Assembly (NCBI GenBank): GCA_964625065.1
Contig: CAZUZL010000002.1
Coordinates: forward strand, 58,067-122,066
Source of the DNA: an uncultured Candidatus Saccharibacteria bacterium
Lineage (GTDB): Bacteria; Patescibacteriota; Minisyncoccia; Phycocordibacterales; UBA9973
DNA length: 64,000 nt
Reading direction: 5' to 3'
Numbering within the stretch: the stretch's first letter is position 1; each line of letters begins with the position of its first letter. Positions 1,768 to 54,394 of the stretch are shown piece after piece. A program made the position numbers and the translations under genes. Under the pieces are notes generated by a model. The model was given only the letters and a program-made list of their open reading frames with translations. It ran no database searches and had not been told where the DNA came from.

Positions 1768-1799
1768 TAAAAAACACCTTATTTTGTAAGGTGTTTTTT
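1768..1799 (-). terminator. Rho-independent terminator downstream of gltX.
   Basis: Hairpin aaaaaacacctta-ttttg-taaggtgtttttt with flanking T/A runs, immediately after the gltX stop. Confidence 0.6.
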
Positions 1800-3776: not shown

Positions 3777-4907
3777 CTATTCGTGCATGTCAGCTACGTC
3801 GTACACGGCGCGGGCTATTAACATGGATGCGTCGGTTTTAGCAAACTTGGTTGCGGCGGCGGCCATGGCGTCGTATTTGTCTTTATGGTCTATTATTTCG
3901 TCGATGGCGTGTATTAGTTCTACTGGTTGTAGGTTGTTTTCTTCTAACACTGTACACGCACCAGCACGGGCGTAGTTGTAGGCGTTTTTACGTTGGTGGT
4001 CGCCATTAGAAACACTAATGGGTACTATAACTGAAGGCAAACCCCATGTAGCTATTTCAAATATTGTAGACCCAGCGCGAGACACAACAATGTTTGCAGA
4101 ACCTGCGGCCATCTTCATACCCAAGGCTTCTAAATATGCAAATGGTTTATAACGGTTTTTATGTTCACTGTCTTTTAAGACAACGCCTGATGTACCTTTA
4201 ACTTCGTCAAAATTTTTAACACCAACCTGGTGTACAACTTGGTATTTCTTAACCAGTTCGGGTAGTGCCTGTACAACAGTATCGTTGATAATAGTTGCCC
4301 CTTGTGAACCACCTGTAATAAATATAACTGGTGTGTGTACCTCGAGGCCCAGGTATTCGCGGGCGCCATTTAGCGTAGGTTTAGTTATGGTGCTACGCAT
4401 TGGTTGGCCTGTCCATGCAACACGTGTACCAGACGGGTCTAATATAGCGGCAACGTCTGGGTACGACACGGCTATGCGTGTAGCAAACTTGGCAGACCAG
4501 CGTGTTACACGGCCCGGCGCCGAGTCTGATTCGTGTATAACTACTGGTATGCGTAGTATGCGTGCTGCCACTAGTGCTGGAAAACTAGCGTAACAACCTT
4601 TAGAAAAAACAACATCTGGGTAAATAAGGAACATTTTCCATAAAGCTATAAATATACCAGACGCTGTTTTAAAAATATCAAAGAAATTTTGTATGGAAAA
4701 ATATATGCGTAGTTTACCAGCAGGCACACTAACAAACTGCAAACCAACTTCGTCTAATACGCGTTGGTTGTATGGGCTGTTAGACATATAATACATTTTT
4801 ACGTCTACAAGTTTTTCAGCATCAACTATTTCGCGTAGTTTTTCTGCTACTGCTATTATGGGGTAAACATGCCCCCCTGAACCACCACCTGTAAAAAGTA
4901 TTTTCAT
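3777..4907 (-). CDS. murG: UDP-N-acetylglucosamine--N-acetylmuramyl-(pentapeptide) pyrophosphoryl-undecaprenol N-acetylglucosamine transferase.
   Basis: 376 aa with a GT28 G-loop MKILFTGGGSGGHVYP. Sits in a murG-ftsW-mraY array. Confidence 0.85.
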   Translation of the reverse strand: MKILFTGGGSGGHVYPIIAVAEKLREIVDAEKLVDVKMYYMSNSPYNQRVLDEVGLQFVSVPAGKLRIYFSIQNFFDIFKTASGIFIALWKMFLIYPDVVFSKGCYASFPALVAARILRIPVVIHESDSAPGRVTRWSAKFATRIAVSYPDVAAILDPSGTRVAWTGQPMRSTITKPTLNGAREYLGLEVHTPVIFITGGSQGATIINDTVVQALPELVKKYQVVHQVGVKNFDEVKGTSGVVLKDSEHKNRYKPFAYLEALGMKMAAGSANIVVSRAGSTIFEIATWGLPSVIVPISVSNGDHQRKNAYNYARAGACTVLEENNLQPVELIHAIDEIIDHKDKYDAMAAAATKFAKTDASMLIARAVYDVADMHE

Positions 4908-17097: not shown

Positions 17098-17117
17098 TAA
17101 ATATATAGACCTTGGTG

Positions 17118-17189
17118 TGCGTGTACTTGGAATCGGACCAAGGGCCTCCGTCTTATCAGGACGGCGTTCTACCACTGAACTATACACGC
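17118..17189 (-). tRNA. tRNA-Ile (anticodon GAU).
   Basis: Hand-folded cloverleaf. Acceptor is GCGTGTA/TACACGC, D-arm GTTC-AGTGGTA-GAAC, anticodon stem CCGTC/GACGG with loop CTGATAA, T-arm CTTGG-TCCGATT-CCAAG. The T-loop has an unusual C at position 55. No encoded CCA. Confidence 0.7.
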
Positions 17190-37321: not shown

Positions 37322-39670
37322 TTAACCTTGATTTTGTTGTGTTCGTATGGTCTCGATTAGGTTCAATGTTTCAGCCTTTAGACTGGCTTCCATGGACTTG
37401 AACAGGCGTAGGCCTTCTTTCTTGTATTCTATCAACGGGTCGCGTTGGCCATATGCCCGAAGGTTAACAGAACTGCGCATATAGTCCATAGTTTCTAGGT
37501 GTTCTACCCACAAATTGTCTGTAACTGTAAGTAAAATGCGTCGCAGTACGTCGAAAAATGCATCTTCACCTACTTCTTTGACTTTACCGGCTACTATTTC
37601 TGGTGCACGTTCGTCTATTTCTGATAGAGATTCTATATATGATGTTAATACGGCTCTGTCGCCTTCTACGATGCTGTTACGGCGGTTATATATGGCAGTA
37701 CGCTGGGTATTTAACACATCGTCGTATTCCAAAGTACTTTTACGTGCATCAAAATGAAAACCTTCTATTTTTGCCTGCGCGTTTTCTAGTGTGCGGCTGA
37801 TTATTTTGTTTTCTATAGGGGTTTCCTCTGGTATACCAAAACGGCCCATCATAGACTTCATTTTTTCACCACCGAATATACGAATTAGGTCGTCTTCTAA
37901 TGAAACATAGAATACTGTTTCGCCCATGTCGCCCTGACGGCCTGAACGACCACGCAACTGGTTGTCTATACGACGTGCTTCGTGGCGTTCTGTACCTAGA
38001 ACAAACAAACCACCTAGGTTGCGTATTTCTTCGCTCTGTTCTTTGGTTGAAGGTTTGCCACCTAACATAATGTCCACACCACGACCTGCCATGTTTGTAG
38101 CAACAACAACACTACCCTTGCGTCCAGATTGAGCGATTATTTCACCTTCTTTTTCGTGGTTTTTAGCATTTAGAACTGTATGTGCCACACCAGACTGGTG
38201 TAGGTATGCAGAAAGCATTTCACTTTTTTCTATAGACACAGTACCTATTAGTACAGGTTGGCCTTTTGTTTGTAGTTCTTTGACTTTGTCTGCTATTGCT
38301 TTGAATTTACCTTGTTCAGTTTGGAAAATCTGGTCTACATGGTCTATACGTTTTACTGGTAGGTGTGTGGGTATTTGTAATACGTCTAGTTTGTAGACTT
38401 TATAGAATTCTTCGGCAGAAGTTTCTGCGGTACCTGTCATGCCGCCTAGGGTTTTATAGAAACGGAAATAGTTTTGGTATGTTATAGACGCTACAGAACG
38501 TGTTTCGTTTTCTATTTTTACAGATTCTTTGGCTTCTACAGCTTGGTGTAGACCTTCAGACCAACGACGGCCCGGTTGCATACGGCCAGTAAATGGGTCG
38601 ACTATTATAACTTCGCCGTTTTTAACAACATAGTCTTTGTCCTTTATATATAGCGCATGTGCACGCACAGCAGTTTCAATATGGTGTACGTATTTGATAC
38701 CTTTTTCAGTATATATATCTGTTACACCTAGTAATTCTTCGACATGGTTTATACCTTCGTTAGTTAGTTGTATTGCTTTGACTTTTTCGTCTATTGTATA
38801 GTCGACTTCTTTTTGTAGTTTTTTAGCTATGTTTGCAGAAGTTTTATAAAGTTCGTCAGATTTTTCTGCTTCAGAGGAAATAATTAACGGTGTACGTGCT
38901 TCATCTATTAGTATAGAGTCTATTTCGTCGACTATTGCATATATATGTCCGCGTTGTGTACGTTGTTCTGGTAGGTATACCAAATTGTCGCGCAAATAGT
39001 CGAAACCAAATTCGCTGTTAGTACCATATGTTATGTCTGCCAGATAGGCTTCAGTTCTGGTACATGGACGAAGTTTTTCGTAAACAACACGGAAAGATTC
39101 TTCGTCGTTTGTGTCTTCTGGTGCGCTATGTGACGCGTCATATATATATGAAGTCTGTTGGCCATTAATAACAGACGTAGACACACCTAGAAATGAGAAA
39201 ATTTGGCCCATCCATGTTGCGTCGCGACGTGCTAGGTAGTCGTTAACTGTAACAATGTGTACACCCAGGCCTGTTATGGCATGTAGATATGCAGGTAGTG
39301 TTGCAACGAGTGTTTTACCTTCACCTGTACGCATTTCTGCAATCATACCGCGGTGTATAGCTATACCACCTATTAGTTGTTCGTCGTAGTGGCGCTGGCC
39401 TATAACACGACGTGCAGATTCACGCACTAATGCATATGCACGTGGTAGAACTTCGTCGAGAGTTTTACCTGACTTTATTTGTTCTTTTAGCTTGTTAGTT
39501 TCAATAGGAAAATCTGCATCGGATAGTGCTTGCATTTCAGGCTCAAAAGACGCAACCGATGCAATGATCGGCTTGTATGAAATAACGGTTTTTTCGTGTT
39601 TGTTTTTAAATAGATTCAGTAATGACATGTGTGTATTATAGCACAGAAAAACCCGATACGCTATCGACAT
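37322..39670 (-). CDS. secA: Preprotein translocase ATPase SecA.
   Basis: 782 aa with DEAD-like motor motifs and SecA N/C architecture. TATAAT lies 6 nt before the ATG. Confidence 0.9.
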   Translation of the reverse strand: MSIAYRVFLCYNTHMSLLNLFKNKHEKTVISYKPIIASVASFEPEMQALSDADFPIETNKLKEQIKSGKTLDEVLPRAYALVRESARRVIGQRHYDEQLIGGIAIHRGMIAEMRTGEGKTLVATLPAYLHAITGLGVHIVTVNDYLARRDATWMGQIFSFLGVSTSVINGQQTSYIYDASHSAPEDTNDEESFRVVYEKLRPCTRTEAYLADITYGTNSEFGFDYLRDNLVYLPEQRTQRGHIYAIVDEIDSILIDEARTPLIISSEAEKSDELYKTSANIAKKLQKEVDYTIDEKVKAIQLTNEGINHVEELLGVTDIYTEKGIKYVHHIETAVRAHALYIKDKDYVVKNGEVIIVDPFTGRMQPGRRWSEGLHQAVEAKESVKIENETRSVASITYQNYFRFYKTLGGMTGTAETSAEEFYKVYKLDVLQIPTHLPVKRIDHVDQIFQTEQGKFKAIADKVKELQTKGQPVLIGTVSIEKSEMLSAYLHQSGVAHTVLNAKNHEKEGEIIAQSGRKGSVVVATNMAGRGVDIMLGGKPSTKEQSEEIRNLGGLFVLGTERHEARRIDNQLRGRSGRQGDMGETVFYVSLEDDLIRIFGGEKMKSMMGRFGIPEETPIENKIISRTLENAQAKIEGFHFDARKSTLEYDDVLNTQRTAIYNRRNSIVEGDRAVLTSYIESLSEIDERAPEIVAGKVKEVGEDAFFDVLRRILLTVTDNLWVEHLETMDYMRSSVNLRAYGQRDPLIEYKKEGLRLFKSMEASLKAETLNLIETIRTQQNQG

Positions 39671-39695
39671 ATCGGGCTTTTCTTTACTTAAAAGA

Positions 39696-39800
39696 CTATA
39701 TTTTTTTTGTCTTTTTTGCAGCTTTTTTAACAGCCTTTTTTGCTGATTTTTTTACTGCTTTCTTTGCAGTCTTTTTAACTGCTTTCTTTTTTGTTGCCAT
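39696..39800 (-). CDS. 34-aa lysine-rich histone H1-like/AlgP-like mini-protein.
   Basis: Hand translation gives MATKKKAVKKTAKKAVKKSAKKAVKKAAKKTKKI. It is below the 60-aa ORF-track cutoff. Confidence 0.4.
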   Translation of the reverse strand: MATKKKAVKKTAKKAVKKSAKKAVKKAAKKTKKI

Positions 39801-40104
39801 AAAAATTAATTTGTGTGTGTATTTTTATTGATAAGCATAATGCACGACCTTTCATAATTAAATGAGATTTGCATTACTGCTACATTCATTATCGCAAACA
39901 TTATTATCACTCGCAAATATTTTTACACAAAAACTGTGGATAACTCACACAAAAAATATTTTTTAATTTTAAAAAAAATATTTTATTAAAATAATAATGT
40001 AAAGTAAACTATACACGATATAAAAATGTGTTTTTCTAGTTATATAATATAGCATTAGATTTACAAATTTTATAAAATTTATAAATTTCTAAAAATAAAA
40101 TATA

Positions 40105-40225
40105 AAAAACCAACAAATTTGTTGGTTTTTTATATTTTAAGAAAATTATACACTCAGTGCAGAAAACGGGGCAAACTCCACAAAGCCTATGTGAGTGCAA
40201 CCGTTTTCTGCACAAAATGTACAAT
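40105..40225 (-). ncRNA. Candidate small RNA: own promoter, 13-bp hairpin and intrinsic terminator.
   Basis: Minus-strand promoter has -35 TTGATT (40254-40259) and -10 TATAAT (40232-40237). The transcript holds hairpin gtgcagaaaacgg...ccgttttctgcac and terminator aaaaaaccaacaaatttgttggtttttt (40108-40135). No ORF. Confidence 0.4.
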
Positions 40226-40261
40226 GGGTTTATTATATAGCATATTTAGATTTAATCAACA

Positions 40262-40345
40262 AAAAACCACCCGAAGGTGGTTTTTTGCGGCTTTCAGGAA
40301 AATCAATTTAAAAATATCTTTTCCTGTTGTGGAGTTTATAACTCA
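40262..40345 (-). ncRNA. Candidate small RNA, or terminator-associated unit, immediately after the PD40 gene stop.
   Basis: Minus-strand promoter has -35 TTGACA (40374-40379), a 16-nt spacer, and -10 TATACT (40352-40357). Downstream are hairpin CAGGAAAA...UUUUCCUG and terminator aaaaaaccaccttcgggtggtttttt (40262-40287). Confidence 0.35.
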
Positions 40346-40383
40346 CAAGACTAGTATAGCAAAACTGCAGGATTTGTCAAGTT

Positions 40384-43314
40384 TTATAAATTTTGTTTAT
40401 TGAATTTGTTTATAAACTTAATAGTTTTGGCATTCATTGTACCGTCTGCTTTTAGTTTGTTAGCCTTTTGGTAGTTTATAAGAGCTTTTTTAGTAGCTTT
40501 ACCAAAGTATTTGGTTTCGTACCCTACAGACCCCCACCCTACAGTAGATACTATAAACCCATTTTTATTTAAGAACTTTTGCAATTCCAATACTTCTACA
40601 TTTCTACTGCCTACACGTGTATTTTTTACAAACACAAATGCAGGTAATGGTGCTGAAGTTGTAACAGGAACTTCATTTTGGTTTTTAGGTTGTTCTGTGG
40701 TAGTTATTAATTTGTTTGGAGGTAATTCTGTTAATATACCACCAGCGCTGTTTGAGCTTGTTGTTGGTGTAGTTTCTACTTCAGCAACGGGTAATGTGAC
40801 TATGTAATAGTTTTTAAATGCATTAGGCGACACTGCTTCTGAAACAAATGCAACCTTAGAACCGTCAGGTGACAGTGTTGGATAAAAAGTGCCACCTTCT
40901 GTTGCTTGGCCAGTAAAAAATGTAGGTAATCTGATTATACTGTTATCTAGCATATTTTTAACATACACATCATACGCACCATTTGAACCTAAACTTCCCG
41001 CGTTTGAAGCAAAAGATATGTATTTACCATCTGCAGATATACTTGAGCCACTTACAGAACTATCAGTCTGTGTTCCGTCTGCCGCTACAGAAACAATTGT
41101 TGTAGTGCCGAGTTGCATGTCGCGAACAAATATATCCGGGATATTGTTTAGATCACCATTTACTAAATCTGAAGCGCTAGATTCAAATGTAATATATCGC
41201 CCATCTGGTGACATAATTGGGTAAATAGATTCACCATTAGCAGACGCGGTACCGGCTGAATTTATAGATACTAGTGTAGTAGTTCCTAGAAGCGTGTCGC
41301 GGATAAAAACATCAGATTGACTGTTTGTATCTATATCAGGCACAACATCGTCTATTGGTGCGTCGAAAGCAACATAACGACCATCTTCAGATATTACAGG
41401 GTTATACGATGAAGCTAATATTTCAGTGCCGTCGTTTTTTAATGATACACGCGTAGTTGTGTTTTCTTGTAAATCACGTACAAAAACGTCATATAAACCA
41501 TTTGTGTCCCCTGCGACCAGGTTTGTGGCAGAACTTGTAAATGCTACATAACGTCCATTTGCAGACATGTCTGCAATATATGAATAGTCGTCAGATTCTA
41601 CACCAGCAGTAGACAGTGACACACGTGTGGTTGTACCTAGTTGCATGTCGCGAACAAATACATCTCCTTTATTGTTTGTGTCCCCTGCGACCAGGTTTGT
41701 GGCATCAGAAAGAAATGCTACATACCGCCCGTCGGCAGACATAGAAGGCATATAAGAAATACTGTTACCCTGTACACCTGCAGTAGATACAGAAATACGT
41801 GTAGCTGTGTTTAGTTGTGTGTCGCGAACAAATATGTCAGAAATACCGTTAGTGTCATTATTGACTAAGTTTCCAGAATATGAACTGAATGCAACATACC
41901 TACCGTCTGTAGACATGTTGTTTCTATATTGAGAAAAATCGTCTGGTGAGGAACCAAAAGCAATTGAGGTATAAACATTCGATATATGTGTCGTTGTACC
42001 AGTTTGTGTGTCGTGTATAAACATGTCGTCACTGTCTGGAATAACATCGTTATCAAACAAGTTAGAAGCAACTGAACCAAAAGTTATATAGCGTCCATTT
42101 GGTGATATAGACGGAGTATACGAATCTGAATTGGCTTCTGCGCCACCAGTTACTACAGAAACTCGTGTTGTAGTGTTTAGTTGTGTGTCACGGACAAAAA
42201 CATCTGTAATAACACTGGTGTCGTCTGCAACTAGGTTACTTGCTGTTGATTGAAATGCTATATAGCGCCCATCAGCAGATATAGATGCATATGTAGAATC
42301 AAGGTTACCTTCTACGCCAGCAGTAGAAACAGACACACGAGTTGTTGTGCTAGTTAATGTGTCGCGCATAAACACATCTGTTTTTGCGTTTGTGTCACCC
42401 ACAACTAAATTTGAAGCATCAGAATGAAATACTACATACCGGCCATCTGCAGATATTATTGCAAAATTAGACTGGTTATTAGATTCAGTACCATCAGTTG
42501 CAACTGATACACGTGTTGTAGTGTTTAGTTGTGTGTCGCGCATAAAAATATCTGTATACCCGTTTGTATCGTCAGCAACCAGACCTGTACCTGATGATTC
42601 GAAACTAACATAACGGCCATCAGCAGATATACTGGCACCAACTGCGCCTTCTATTTCTTCATCACCGGCGGTGTTAACTGAAACACGTGATGTAGTGTTT
42701 AGAACAGTGTCGCGAACAAAAACATCAGGGTTACCATTAGTGTCGCCCACAACTAAGTTCGATGCGATTGACTCAAAAGCCACATACCGGCCATCGTCTG
42801 AAATAGACGGTGTCCTTGAGTCACCATTGGCTTCTGTGCCGTCTGCTGCAACTGACACGCGTTTAGTTGTACCTAGTTGGGTGTCGCGTACAAATATGTC
42901 CAAGTTACCTAAAGTGTCGCCGTCGACAAGGTTTGTAGCATACGAATAAAATGCAATGTAACGCCCGTCTGGTGTATAAGCCAAATCTAAAGAATCAGCA
43001 TTACCCATTTCACCAGCACTGTTTACAGAAACTATTTCAGTAGCACCAGTTGCATGGGTATATTTATATATTTGGTAATTATATGGACTAAGCGACGACA
43101 CGCCGTAGAACAATGCGTCGCCGTTATCTAGAACGCCTTTACCACCATCTGAGATTGCTGTTGTGTGCCGTATAGGTACAGTTGCGTCACCTATATCTAT
43201 TTGAACTATATCAGATGTTGCTGCAAATGACTGTGTACCTAAAAAAGGTAATACGCAAACCAAGTATATACCCAGCACTGACATAGTTATGTGTTGTAGT
43301 TTTTTCATATACAA
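40384..43314 (-). CDS. Secreted PD40 (TolB-like) beta-propeller repeat protein with C-terminal peptidoglycan-binding domain.
   Basis: 976 aa with a signal peptide. About 16 repeats of ~44 aa (DGRYVAFxSxASNLVxGDTNGxxDVFVRDTQLNTTTRVSV). The C-terminal ~80 aa are PG_binding_1-like. Confidence 0.7.
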   Translation of the reverse strand: MYMKKLQHITMSVLGIYLVCVLPFLGTQSFAATSDIVQIDIGDATVPIRHTTAISDGGKGVLDNGDALFYGVSSLSPYNYQIYKYTHATGATEIVSVNSAGEMGNADSLDLAYTPDGRYIAFYSYATNLVDGDTLGNLDIFVRDTQLGTTKRVSVAADGTEANGDSRTPSISDDGRYVAFESIASNLVVGDTNGNPDVFVRDTVLNTTSRVSVNTAGDEEIEGAVGASISADGRYVSFESSGTGLVADDTNGYTDIFMRDTQLNTTTRVSVATDGTESNNQSNFAIISADGRYVVFHSDASNLVVGDTNAKTDVFMRDTLTSTTTRVSVSTAGVEGNLDSTYASISADGRYIAFQSTASNLVADDTSVITDVFVRDTQLNTTTRVSVVTGGAEANSDSYTPSISPNGRYITFGSVASNLFDNDVIPDSDDMFIHDTQTGTTTHISNVYTSIAFGSSPDDFSQYRNNMSTDGRYVAFSSYSGNLVNNDTNGISDIFVRDTQLNTATRISVSTAGVQGNSISYMPSMSADGRYVAFLSDATNLVAGDTNNKGDVFVRDMQLGTTTRVSLSTAGVESDDYSYIADMSANGRYVAFTSSATNLVAGDTNGLYDVFVRDLQENTTTRVSLKNDGTEILASSYNPVISEDGRYVAFDAPIDDVVPDIDTNSQSDVFIRDTLLGTTTLVSINSAGTASANGESIYPIMSPDGRYITFESSASDLVNGDLNNIPDIFVRDMQLGTTTIVSVAADGTQTDSSVSGSSISADGKYISFASNAGSLGSNGAYDVYVKNMLDNSIIRLPTFFTGQATEGGTFYPTLSPDGSKVAFVSEAVSPNAFKNYYIVTLPVAEVETTPTTSSNSAGGILTELPPNKLITTTEQPKNQNEVPVTTSAPLPAFVFVKNTRVGSRNVEVLELQKFLNKNGFIVSTVGWGSVGYETKYFGKATKKALINYQKANKLKADGTMNAKTIKFINKFNKQNL

Positions 43315-52210: not shown

Positions 52211-52509
52211 TGAATAGTACTAAGCCGGAAATTTATTTCCGGCTTTTTTATTTTATACACTATAACGGAATTTAACGGTCGTTAATTTCCGTTACCATTA
52301 CACACAAATAACAAAAACCACCTTTCGGTGGTTTTTGTAGAGGATACAAACTTTCTTTTGTTTCGTTCTGACCGGGACTTTCCCCGGCGTCAACATGGTT
52401 AAGGTCACAACATGCTTGGACCATTATGCACTCGATCGAGCTGCACAATATCGACACCATAAGTGTATATCTGGTTGAATAGATATAAACACGGTTTCAA
52501 ATTGAATTA

Positions 52510-54083
<1,574 letters not shown>

Positions 54084-54394
54084 ATATAAGAGGTAAATTT
54101 TAGTTTATCTCTTCGTAAAAAGAGACAAGATAAAGAATATTATTGTATATGTTGTTTGCACAAAGATGAATATATGTAAGGACCGTTTGACCGGCCTTTT
54201 ACCAGATATTCTACTTTGTTATTGTTTTGTCAAAGTACTTTTTACCTTTAGGGCACAAGGCATTTTAGCTCCCCCTGCCCTCAAAATAAAACCCCTATTC
54301 AAGAGGTAGAGAGTATTCTATACGAAGTAAAATATAAGTCAAGCGGTTAACCTAGACTTATAAATATGGTGTTAAACGCGCTTTCAATTTAAAA

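Follow-up and report, generated by a model that had tools for sequence, protein, structure and literature searches.

What is encoded in the 583-nt gap that, on the minus strand of a 64-kb stretch of DNA (the window), separates the gene of a 976-residue protein with PD40 repeats from a short lysine-rich open reading frame (ORF) and secA? In a sequence-only reading of this region, the gap had been described as a tandem arrangement of two promoter–hairpin–terminator units without ORF, which would either give rise to two independently transcribed small RNAs of ~85 and ~120 nt or constitute an unusual terminator-insulator. All elements listed in this reading were recovered on the minus strand and deviate by no more than 1-2 nt from the positions it had assigned, with both units located at 40380-40104, directly after the PD40 stop codon. 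In our analysis, the two units, here termed u1 and u2, are with high probability genuine genes of small RNAs (sRNAs), whose products likely pair with each other. As judged from their comparison across related genomes, they are a deeply conserved, co-evolving sRNA pair in ultra-small bacteria of the candidate phyla radiation (CPR), which is found outside the catalogued RNA families.

The first unit, u1, is composed of the following features:

40380-40353 (-): u1 promoter, with -35 element TTGACA (40380-40375), a 16-nt spacer and the TG-extended -10 element TGcTATACT (40361-40353)
40346-40259 (-): u1 small RNA of ~88 nt, with ends predicted from promoter and terminator consensus
40347-40341 (-): 5'-terminal segment A, UGUGAGU, which forms hairpin 1 with segment C
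40337-40327 (-): segment C, AAACUCCACAA, the partner of segment A in hairpin 1
40326-40295 (-): hairpin 2, a covarying stem with the conserved loop GAUAUUUUUAAAUUGA
40294-40289 (-): segment B, AAAGCC, single-stranded and located before the terminator
40288-40259 (-): terminator region, the 3' part of u1
40286-40261 (-): intrinsic terminator, AAAAAACCACC-UUCG-GGUGGUUUUUU, recognized by its fold and its covarying stem

The TTGACA-16-TATACT promoter, which had been noticed directly after the PD40 stop, matches the consensus in 11 of 12 positions and carries a TG extension in a promoter scan, and the first terminator, originally placed at 40262-40287, was recovered at 40286-40261. The predicted fold of u1 consists of two hairpins and the terminator, with a minimum free energy (MFE) of -31.7 kcal/mol and a z-score of -6.0 relative to 200 dinucleotide shuffles. 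In five close relatives, 91% of this structure is paired and nine pairs show compensatory changes, which was not reached in any of 500 shuffles. Within this subfamily, the compensatory changes reside in hairpin 2 and the terminator, whereas sequence conservation is seen in hairpin 1 and in the 16-nt loop that closes hairpin 2. The terminator stem covaries among relatives, as manifested in the combinations CCACC/GGUGG, CGCCC/GGGCG and CCGCC/GGCGG. Across lineages, u1 is defined by an invariant 5'-terminal GUGAGU(G), followed by one or two variable hairpins, a single-stranded stretch and the terminator. It is present in a single copy in the window as judged by nhmmer, and its longest ORFs (0-12 codons) are not conserved. 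The loop of hairpin 2 (40301-40322) shows AU-rich complementarity of 14-18 nt to codons 4-9 of secA (39603-39616) and to the AT-rich spacer (39951-39968). The L004 lineage does not conserve this pairing, which we have discarded as probably due to chance.

The second unit, u2, follows immediately, with a promoter that abuts the tail of the u1 terminator:

40259-40232 (-): u2 promoter, with -35 element TTGATT (40259-40254), a 16-nt spacer and -10 element TATAAT (40237-40232), preceded by TGCTATA
40225-40104 (-): u2 small RNA of ~122 nt, with predicted ends, consisting of a long hairpin and its own terminator
40225-40145 (-): long hairpin of ~81 nt, with a 13-bp stem, an 11-bp basal stem and a structured apex
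40213-40201 / 40169-40157 (-): 13-bp stem GUGCAGAAAACGG/CCGUUUUCUGCAC, from the predicted fold
40200-40170 (-): conserved apex, containing the segments A', B' and C', which are complementary to A, B and C of u1
40196-40190 (-): segment A', ACUCACA, complementary to u1 A
40187-40182 (-): segment B', GGCUUU, complementary to u1 B
40183-40173 (-): segment C', UUGUGGAGUUU, complementary to u1 C
40135-40108 (-): intrinsic terminator, AAAAAACCAACAAAUUUGUUGGUUUUUU, from scan and fold

The u2 promoter, which matches the consensus in 10 of 12 positions, and the second terminator both coincide with the elements described previously, the latter at identical coordinates. Of the hairpin that had been described as a 13-bp stem enclosing a 33-nt loop, the stem was retained and found to be extended by the basal stem, whereas the presumed loop turned out to be a structured and conserved apex. 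The fold of u2 is far more stable than that of shuffled sequences (MFE -57.3 kcal/mol, z = -11.5), with internal loops of only 1-3 nt. Its apex, where the segments follow each other in the order A'-B'-C', reads GCACUCACA, a variable loop and then UUGGAG...GC / UUGGAGCUCGC. It is the most conserved part of the RNA, with CUCAC and GGAG being invariant in 27 sequences, and its sequence GCACTCAC occurs once in the whole window. In the alignment of these sequences (A3), 94.3% of the cells of a 25-pair structure are paired, compared to 36-47% in controls where the structure was slid along the alignment, and compensatory changes were detected in 19 of the 25 pairs (166 cells), with none of 500 shuffles reaching the observed values. 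On the proposed strand, G.U pairs exceed A.C pairs by 43 to 11, and selection therefore acts on the RNA of this strand. The longest ORFs within u2 span 0-33 codons and are not conserved. In L004 and L005, a run of eight uridines directly follows the long hairpin; most other homologues contain a separate terminator.

To place both units in an evolutionary context, relatives of the locus, here referred to by L numbers, were fetched using secA as anchor, 80 from genomes and 80 from metagenomes. All sampled relatives are CPR bacteria (Paceibacteria-like), and a location of both units near secA is conserved in relatives with SecA identities of 56-93%. With blastn and nhmmer, the u1-u2 region was recovered as a whole in the closest relatives, whereas more distant ones matched each unit individually. 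The covariance model R1, built for u2, has a single match in the window (40151-40217, 65.6 bits, E 2e-13) and identified about 37 distinct homologues at 42-78 bits, together with two weaker ones. Of about 35 lineages with sufficient flanking sequence, about 30 contain u1 within a few hundred nt of u2; in the fetched flanks of five u2-bearing lineages (L107, L088, L023/L103, L091 and L105), it was detected neither by a combined search for promoter, seed and terminator nor by a hidden Markov model. The hexamers TTGACA and TATACT of the u1 promoter are invariant in L002-L005, and in other lineages a -35-like hexamer and the motif TGnTAnnnT are located upstream of every u1. The GUGAG of u1, which coincides with the predicted transcription start, typically begins 6-8 nt after the -10 element (4-5 nt in L029), and a GC-rich terminator follows in all homologues. 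Similarly, a -10 box, which is often TG-extended, precedes the hairpin in all u2 homologues, with an own terminator found after u2 in most lineages. Since each RNA has its own promoter and terminator and since u1 is inverted relative to u2 in L100, the two would be separate transcription units. The promoter scan was overall not enriched (12 sites compared to 7.7 +/- 2.5 in shuffles), and we consider both promoters to be real because of their conservation in relatives and not as a result of the scan.

Both units thus keep their promoters and terminators across dozens of related genomes, and each combines the attributes of a stand-alone gene of a trans-acting sRNA, namely its own near-consensus promoter of the sigma-70 type, an intrinsic terminator, where a U-run follows a GC-rich hairpin with covarying stem, and the lack of a conserved ORF, the latter in line with the initial description. 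Of the two interpretations offered at that stage, two independently transcribed small RNAs are supported by the conserved promoters and terminators, the covarying stems, the G.U bias and the variation of neighbours and orientation, whereas the terminator-insulator is at odds with the fact that far more than the terminators is conserved. An origin of both units as a type I toxin-antitoxin system or as a gene of a small protein was rejected, as there is no conserved ORF and the stems of u2 covary without codon constraint. The long inverted repeats in an AT-rich spacer, with a perfect DnaA box 200 bp downstream, could also be expected for an element acting on the level of DNA, such as a repeat or miniature inverted-repeat transposable element (MITE), the end of a mobile element, a phage remnant or part of an origin. 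Such assignment is hardly credible in light of the described bias of G.U over A.C pairs, which reflects selection on the RNA level. A test for repeats of the MITE or repetitive extragenic palindromic type covered the 64-kb window and the fetched loci, and revealed a single copy in each. This copy number at the level of loci and the zero matches in 2.9 million viral contigs led us to dismiss a mobile or phage element, and the presence of only one DnaA box and the lack of a switch in GC-skew or gene orientation to dismiss a replication origin.

A pronounced feature of the two RNAs, which had escaped the sequence-only reading, concerns their mutual complementarity. Segment A at the 5' end of u1 (GUGAGUGC) shows complementarity to segment A' (GCACUCAC) on the 5' strand of the u2 apex. 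In the 7-bp core of this match, pairing is seen in all 28 lineages at six positions and in 23 of them (82%) at the remaining one. Double changes have converted a U-A into a C-G pair in L009, L011 and L085 and a G-C into an A-U pair in L127, and changes on both sides were observed in seven pairs, compared to 4.1 +/- 0.9 in shuffles (1/500). Within 29 loci that add up to 314 kb, occurrences of the heptamer CACTCAC are essentially confined to u2 and, in the form of its reverse complement, to u1. A second complementarity relates segment B of u1 to the apical loop B' of u2, with perfect runs of 5-14 bp whose sequences are wholly different between lineages, as illustrated by AAAGUAAACAACU : AGUUGUUUACUUU in L086, CAAUUGCCUA : UAGGCAAUUG in L008 and AAAGCC : GGCUUU in the window. 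Finally, segments C and C' form an 11-bp perfect match in the window (AAACUCCACAA : UUGUGGAGUUU).

The specificity of this complementarity becomes apparent upon exchange of the partners. When compared with 20 distinct u2 loops, the cognate loop ranks first for 14 of 26 u1 RNAs and among the top two for 20 of them. The mean energy of the cognate duplexes amounts to -11.24 kcal/mol, compared to -6.12 +/- 0.54 kcal/mol for permuted partners, a value that was not reached in any of 20000 permutations, and the interaction of the u1 body with B'C' shows a mean z-score of -4.2 relative to shuffles. The co-variation in support of base-pairing that characterizes pairs of an sRNA and its partner RNA is thus reflected in the permutations, in the rank of the cognate loop and in the changes of A:A'. 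At the level of sequences, the comparison establishes the sequence elements, the conserved promoters and terminators, the intramolecular structures as reflected in covariation and a complementarity of u1 to u2 that co-evolves, and it makes an interaction between the two RNAs probable. With respect to further targets of the 5' seed of u1, neither a recurrent third site nor an mRNA target was detected in 314 kb of related loci, and the complementarity of u1 and u2 to RNase P RNA, 5S rRNA and the 3' end of 16S rRNA is no better than in shuffles.

It is conceivable that such complementarity is found in two unrelated sRNAs that do not pair in vivo, as consequence of common descent, where the apex would have undergone an old duplication in inverted or tandem form, or of a single protein that recognizes the same helix in both. 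Hairpin 1 of u1 (A:C) and the apex of u2 (A':C') indeed form the same helix, which is closed by the loop at one end in u1 and at the other end in u2, and the circularly permuted order of the blocks is what a duplication could yield. However, descent fails to explain how B and B' remain perfectly complementary while their sequences diverge completely between lineages, and it leaves unaccounted the double changes in A:A' at positions that are either unpaired or constrained only to wobble within u2. We thus regard this scenario as improbable.

The arrangement of the complementary blocks poses specific requirements on a complex of both RNAs. In u1 the blocks follow each other in the order A-C-B, whereas the antisense of the u2 apex would read C-B-A, which defines u1 as a circular permutation of this antisense. 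In a model of the complex, C-B and B'-C' would form an ordinary antiparallel duplex, which in the window would be interrupted by hairpin 2 of u1, thus leading to a three-way junction, and the addition of A:A' would require either a closed, pseudoknot-like arrangement or alternative states. In the predicted folds of the free RNAs, A pairs with C in hairpin 1 of u1, and A' pairs with C' in u2. Pairing between the RNAs would in this model open both hairpin 1 of u1 and the apex of u2. We envision that the single-stranded segment B of u1 would nucleate with the exposed apical loop B' of u2, that the 5' end A of u1 would subsequently invade A' on the 5' strand of the apex, and that in the lineage of the window segment C would additionally pair with C', with the result that the conserved apex of u2 would be opened. 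By this process, one RNA would titrate or remodel the other and so control its availability, with both being constitutively promoted. The transcript ends, the expression, the pairing in vivo, the order of steps and the regulatory outcome in this scheme are all features that we infer.

Overall, the data are best explained by a single co-evolving module, in which we are inclined to assign u1 the role of a dedicated antisense regulator of the conserved u2 apex; for the antagonist model in its specific form, the chances appear about balanced. In this assignment, u2 is favoured as primary functional RNA because it is more widely detectable and because it occurs without an adjacent u1, and a protein or another RNA is the presumed ligand of its invariant CUCAC/GGAG helix. 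An opposite assignment, with u2 acting as a sponge for the 5' seed of u1, fits the data equally well and is a live alternative. With less confidence, we propose a more detailed version, where u1 (A-C-B), as circularly permuted antisense of the u2 apex (A'-B'-C'), would be part of an undescribed two-RNA module of the sampled Paceibacteria-like lineages, whose closed pseudoknot-like or three-way-junction complex would expose the GGAG strand and would serve as a housekeeping ribonucleoprotein (RNP) or as an RNA switch.

The linkage of both genes also raises the question whether u1 and u2 might be the two halves of a stable bipartite RNA, acting as heterodimer or RNP scaffold according to the logic of CRISPR RNA (crRNA) and trans-activating CRISPR RNA (tracrRNA) or of a two-piece transfer-messenger RNA (tmRNA), instead of a regulator and its target. 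Besides the tight genetic linkage and the strong, constitutive-looking promoters of both genes, such organization would be in line with a complementarity that spans nearly the whole u2 apex (-15 to -31 kcal/mol) and with the conservation of A, A' and C' beyond the requirements of pairing, which suggests a third partner that recognizes the assembled complex. Conversely, u2 lacks an adjacent u1 in five lineages, the permuted order of the blocks makes a single fully paired complex sterically difficult, and no protein gene is consistently linked to the pair. We regard the bipartite RNA as a live alternative, though an unlikely one.

Several observations weigh against an antisense interaction as described. 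A and A' are nearly invariant, and the covariation signal derived from them is consequently modest. In the lineage of the window, B:B' is with 6 bp short and pairing leans more on C:C', and the latter is weak in many other lineages (mean z = -1.65). The permuted block order implies that not all blocks can reside in one simple duplex, thus requiring the assumption of a closed or pseudoknot-like complex or of alternative pairings. RNAcofold applied to u1 and u2 showed no net gain, a result that is uninformative since the pairing of a loop with a strand constitutes a pseudoknot for its model. Five lineages illustrate that u2 can exist without an adjacent u1. Finally, every locus was collected through secA, which biases our sample towards one syntenic neighbourhood.

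The module proposed for u1 and u2 can be regarded as a variation on the known theme of an sRNA and its partner RNA. In enterobacteria, this theme is exemplified by sRNAs and their sponges or anti-sRNAs, such as GcvB-SroC, ChiX and the chbBC spacer, and RyhB/RybB and the 3'ETS-leuZ. As in these systems, u1 and u2 would be made separately and share limited, block-wise complementarity, with titration of one partner as the expected consequence, and one RNA begins with a conserved seed that is single-stranded and ends with a Rho-independent terminator. In contrast to the known sponges, which mostly derive from mRNAs or tRNA precursors as by-products and are genetically unlinked to the sRNA, u1 and u2 appear as stand-alone genes that are located side by side across a deep lineage. 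A further difference concerns the partner u2, which is a rod-like hairpin of 20-30 bp, and the permuted order of the complementary blocks.

A recognition loop that is offered by a stable long stem-loop is also found in antisense control RNAs including RNA-OUT/RNA-IN of IS10, CopA/CopT of R1 and RNAI/RNAII of ColE1. There, the 5' end or a single strand of the partner nucleates and then invades the top of the stem, resembling the proposed action of A and B of u1 on A' and B' of u2. However, these RNAs are encoded in cis on opposite strands of plasmids or transposons and their complementarity is perfectly colinear, whereas u1 and u2 reside on the chromosome as separate genes, usually arranged in tandem, whose complementarity would be maintained by co-evolution. 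An assignment as cis-encoded antisense RNA of the RNA-OUT, CopA or RNAI type was rejected, as the two units do not overlap and usually reside on the same strand. The pair shares with crRNA:tracrRNA the origin of small RNAs from neighbouring genes and an imperfect duplex of roughly 20 bp. It differs by the absence of a repeat array and of a cas or other effector gene nearby, and by variable segments B and B' that match each other and not foreign DNA. Long perfect duplex regions would be substrates of RNase III.

Could one of the two RNAs instead be a known species that has diverged? In a search with the 4227 models of Rfam 15, a check that had been suggested from the outset, no family matched either unit at gathering score in the region 39650-40450. 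At E <= 10, this 801-nt region yielded only IS128, AgrB and SpF25 with 17-24 bits, all on terminator hairpins and none on the body of either RNA, with the best match scoring at 24.4 bits, compared to a cutoff of 80 bits. The sole tRNA or tmRNA match of ARAGORN in the window is a tRNA-Ile at 17117-17189, and thus none is located at u1 or u2. Our literature searches returned no description of such RNAs in CPR bacteria. A strongly diverged housekeeping RNA, such as the 6S RNA or the RNA of the signal recognition particle (SRP), which might have been missed by Rfam models in CPR, could be considered based on the superficial resemblance of the long u2 hairpin and its conserved apex to 4.5S/SRP RNA, the location of the pair next to the RNase P RNA gene (rnpB) in L003, L008, L009 and L010 and next to the 3' end of 16S rRNA in L008/L010, and the lack of an SRP, 6S or tmRNA match in the window, although a stretch of 64 kb is too small for such absence to count. 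The small bacterial SRP (4.5S) RNA carries a GNAR tetraloop at its apex and a symmetric loop with 5' AGG and 3' AGCA. Neither is found in u2, whose long hairpin ends in GCACUCACA, a variable loop and UUGGAGCUCGC, and no SRP match was obtained at E <= 10. Similarly, 6S RNA forms a rod of ~160-200 nt with a large central bubble, whereas the hairpin of u2 has a length of ~81 nt, as compared to ~180 nt in 6S RNAs, and contains only its 1-3-nt internal loops, again without a 6S match at the same threshold. We have thus rejected both assignments and consider a diverged housekeeping RNA as very improbable.

Besides the two RNAs, the relevant part of the window contains the following genes:

43720-43387 (-): RNase P RNA gene (rnpB), Rfam match of 105 bits with a cutoff of 100
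43314-40384 (-): gene of the 976-aa PD40 / PG_binding_1 protein, with PD40 repeats, a PG_binding_1 domain and the stop codon TAA at 40386-40384
39800-39696 (-): Lys-rich ORF of 34 codons, located between the gap and secA

On the minus strand, RNase P RNA, the PD40 / PG_binding_1 gene, the 583-nt gap, the Lys-rich ORF and secA follow each other in this order. In this context, u1 and u2 might be suspected to be elements acting in cis, either as terminator or insulator of the upstream gene or as leader or attenuator for the Lys-rich ORF and secA. They are located between convergently ordered genes on one strand, contain two strong terminators that are flanked on either side by A- and U-tracts, and are frequently found upstream of the Lys-rich ORF and secA. 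The comparison with relatives leaves little room for this view: the upstream genes vary between genomes and include PD40, rnpB, a gene with resemblance to tetratricopeptide repeat (TPR) proteins and others, and the distance to the downstream gene ranges from ~0.1 to >2.5 kb. In L008/L010 the pair is placed beside rnpB in opposite direction, pointing away from the Lys-rich ORF and secA. Moreover, separate promoters serve the Lys-rich ORF and secA, with a terminator located between the two, and no alternative antiterminator fold is evident. The changing neighbours, the flipped orientations and the own promoters and terminators of both units therefore exclude a terminator or insulator and a fixed leader of downstream genes, and a riboswitch or attenuation leader was rejected on the same grounds of own terminators and variable distance and orientation, making any cis element highly improbable. 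The location of rnpB beside the pair is based on a cmscan match in L003, L009 and L010 and on inspection by eye in L008, with the 16S 3' end also present in L008/L010. In L003 (4647-5300), u1 is found directly 3' of the RNase P RNA gene and the PD40 gene is absent; the PD40 / PG_binding_1 gene between rnpB and u1 in the window looks like a lineage-specific insertion.

The spacer downstream of u2 and the start of secA show several features of their own. The perfect DnaA box TTATCCACA is found as single copy in the AT-rich spacer at 39935-39943 (-), and L002, L003, L007-L010, L012, L085 and L108 share the extended motif AGTTATCCACA ahead of their Lys-rich ORF. Since there is only one box and no switch in GC-skew, it is probably a regulatory site and not an origin (oriC). 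The Lys-rich ORF (MATKKKAVKKTAKK...) is built of 12-nt repeats, and many relatives conserve it ahead of secA. It did not match any Pfam family. Its leader (~39815-39885 (-)) is predicted to form a hairpin with a conserved AAGGUCGUG motif in its loop and may be an unrecognized cis-regulatory leader. In L008 (~3790-3810) and L010 (~1770-1790 (+)), the mRNA of this ORF seems to start with GUGAGUGUGAU, which equals the 5' motif of u1 and is complementary to A' of u2; a start of this type was not seen in the window. The Lys-rich ORF is followed by its own terminator, with arms at 39640-39658 / 39670-39688 (-), and by a TGtGCTATAAT promoter (39626-39690 for the whole arrangement). The start of secA is most likely the ATG at 39628 (MSLLNLFKNKHEK), which is placed 6-7 nt after the -10 element and would give rise to a leaderless mRNA, and the mechanically listed start at 39670 falls inside the terminator of the Lys-rich ORF.

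The SecA protein of the window is 92-98% identical to those of metagenome-assembled genomes labelled as Nomurabacteria, Minisyncoccia or Paceibacterota, which by sequence identifies the window as DNA of a CPR/Patescibacteria bacterium. Its rRNA genes are unlinked, with 16S at 52500-54087, 5S at 62743-62849 and 23S at 62981-64000, all on the minus strand, and 16S located ~8.6 kb downstream of 23S-5S with protein genes in between. In the last 40 nt of the 16S match, the usual CCUCC tail was not seen at the 3' end. The 23S match (62981-64000 (-)) carries an insertion of ~404 nt in domain V (window ~63260-63670, model positions ~2620-2624), for which none of the Rfam intron families scored at gathering threshold, and which may represent an intron or intervening sequence, as reported for rRNAs of CPR bacteria.

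CPR/Patescibacteria have tiny genomes with few known regulators and, to our knowledge, almost no non-coding RNAs have been characterized in these organisms beyond rRNA, tRNA and RNase P RNA. The pair would be unusual for its two strongly promoted small RNAs that are kept together over deep divergence, with SecA identities down to ~56%, and for loop and seed sequences that co-evolve between the two RNAs. The interaction is testable by design, and the permuted complementary blocks would represent an unusual geometry of RNA-RNA recognition. The families of u1 and u2 could enter RNA family databases and thus improve the annotation of CPR genomes. In the organisms themselves, the pair is likely central to regulation by RNA or part of a new RNP, and if our reading as a two-RNA module is true, no conserved riboregulatory system would have been characterized in CPR bacteria before it.

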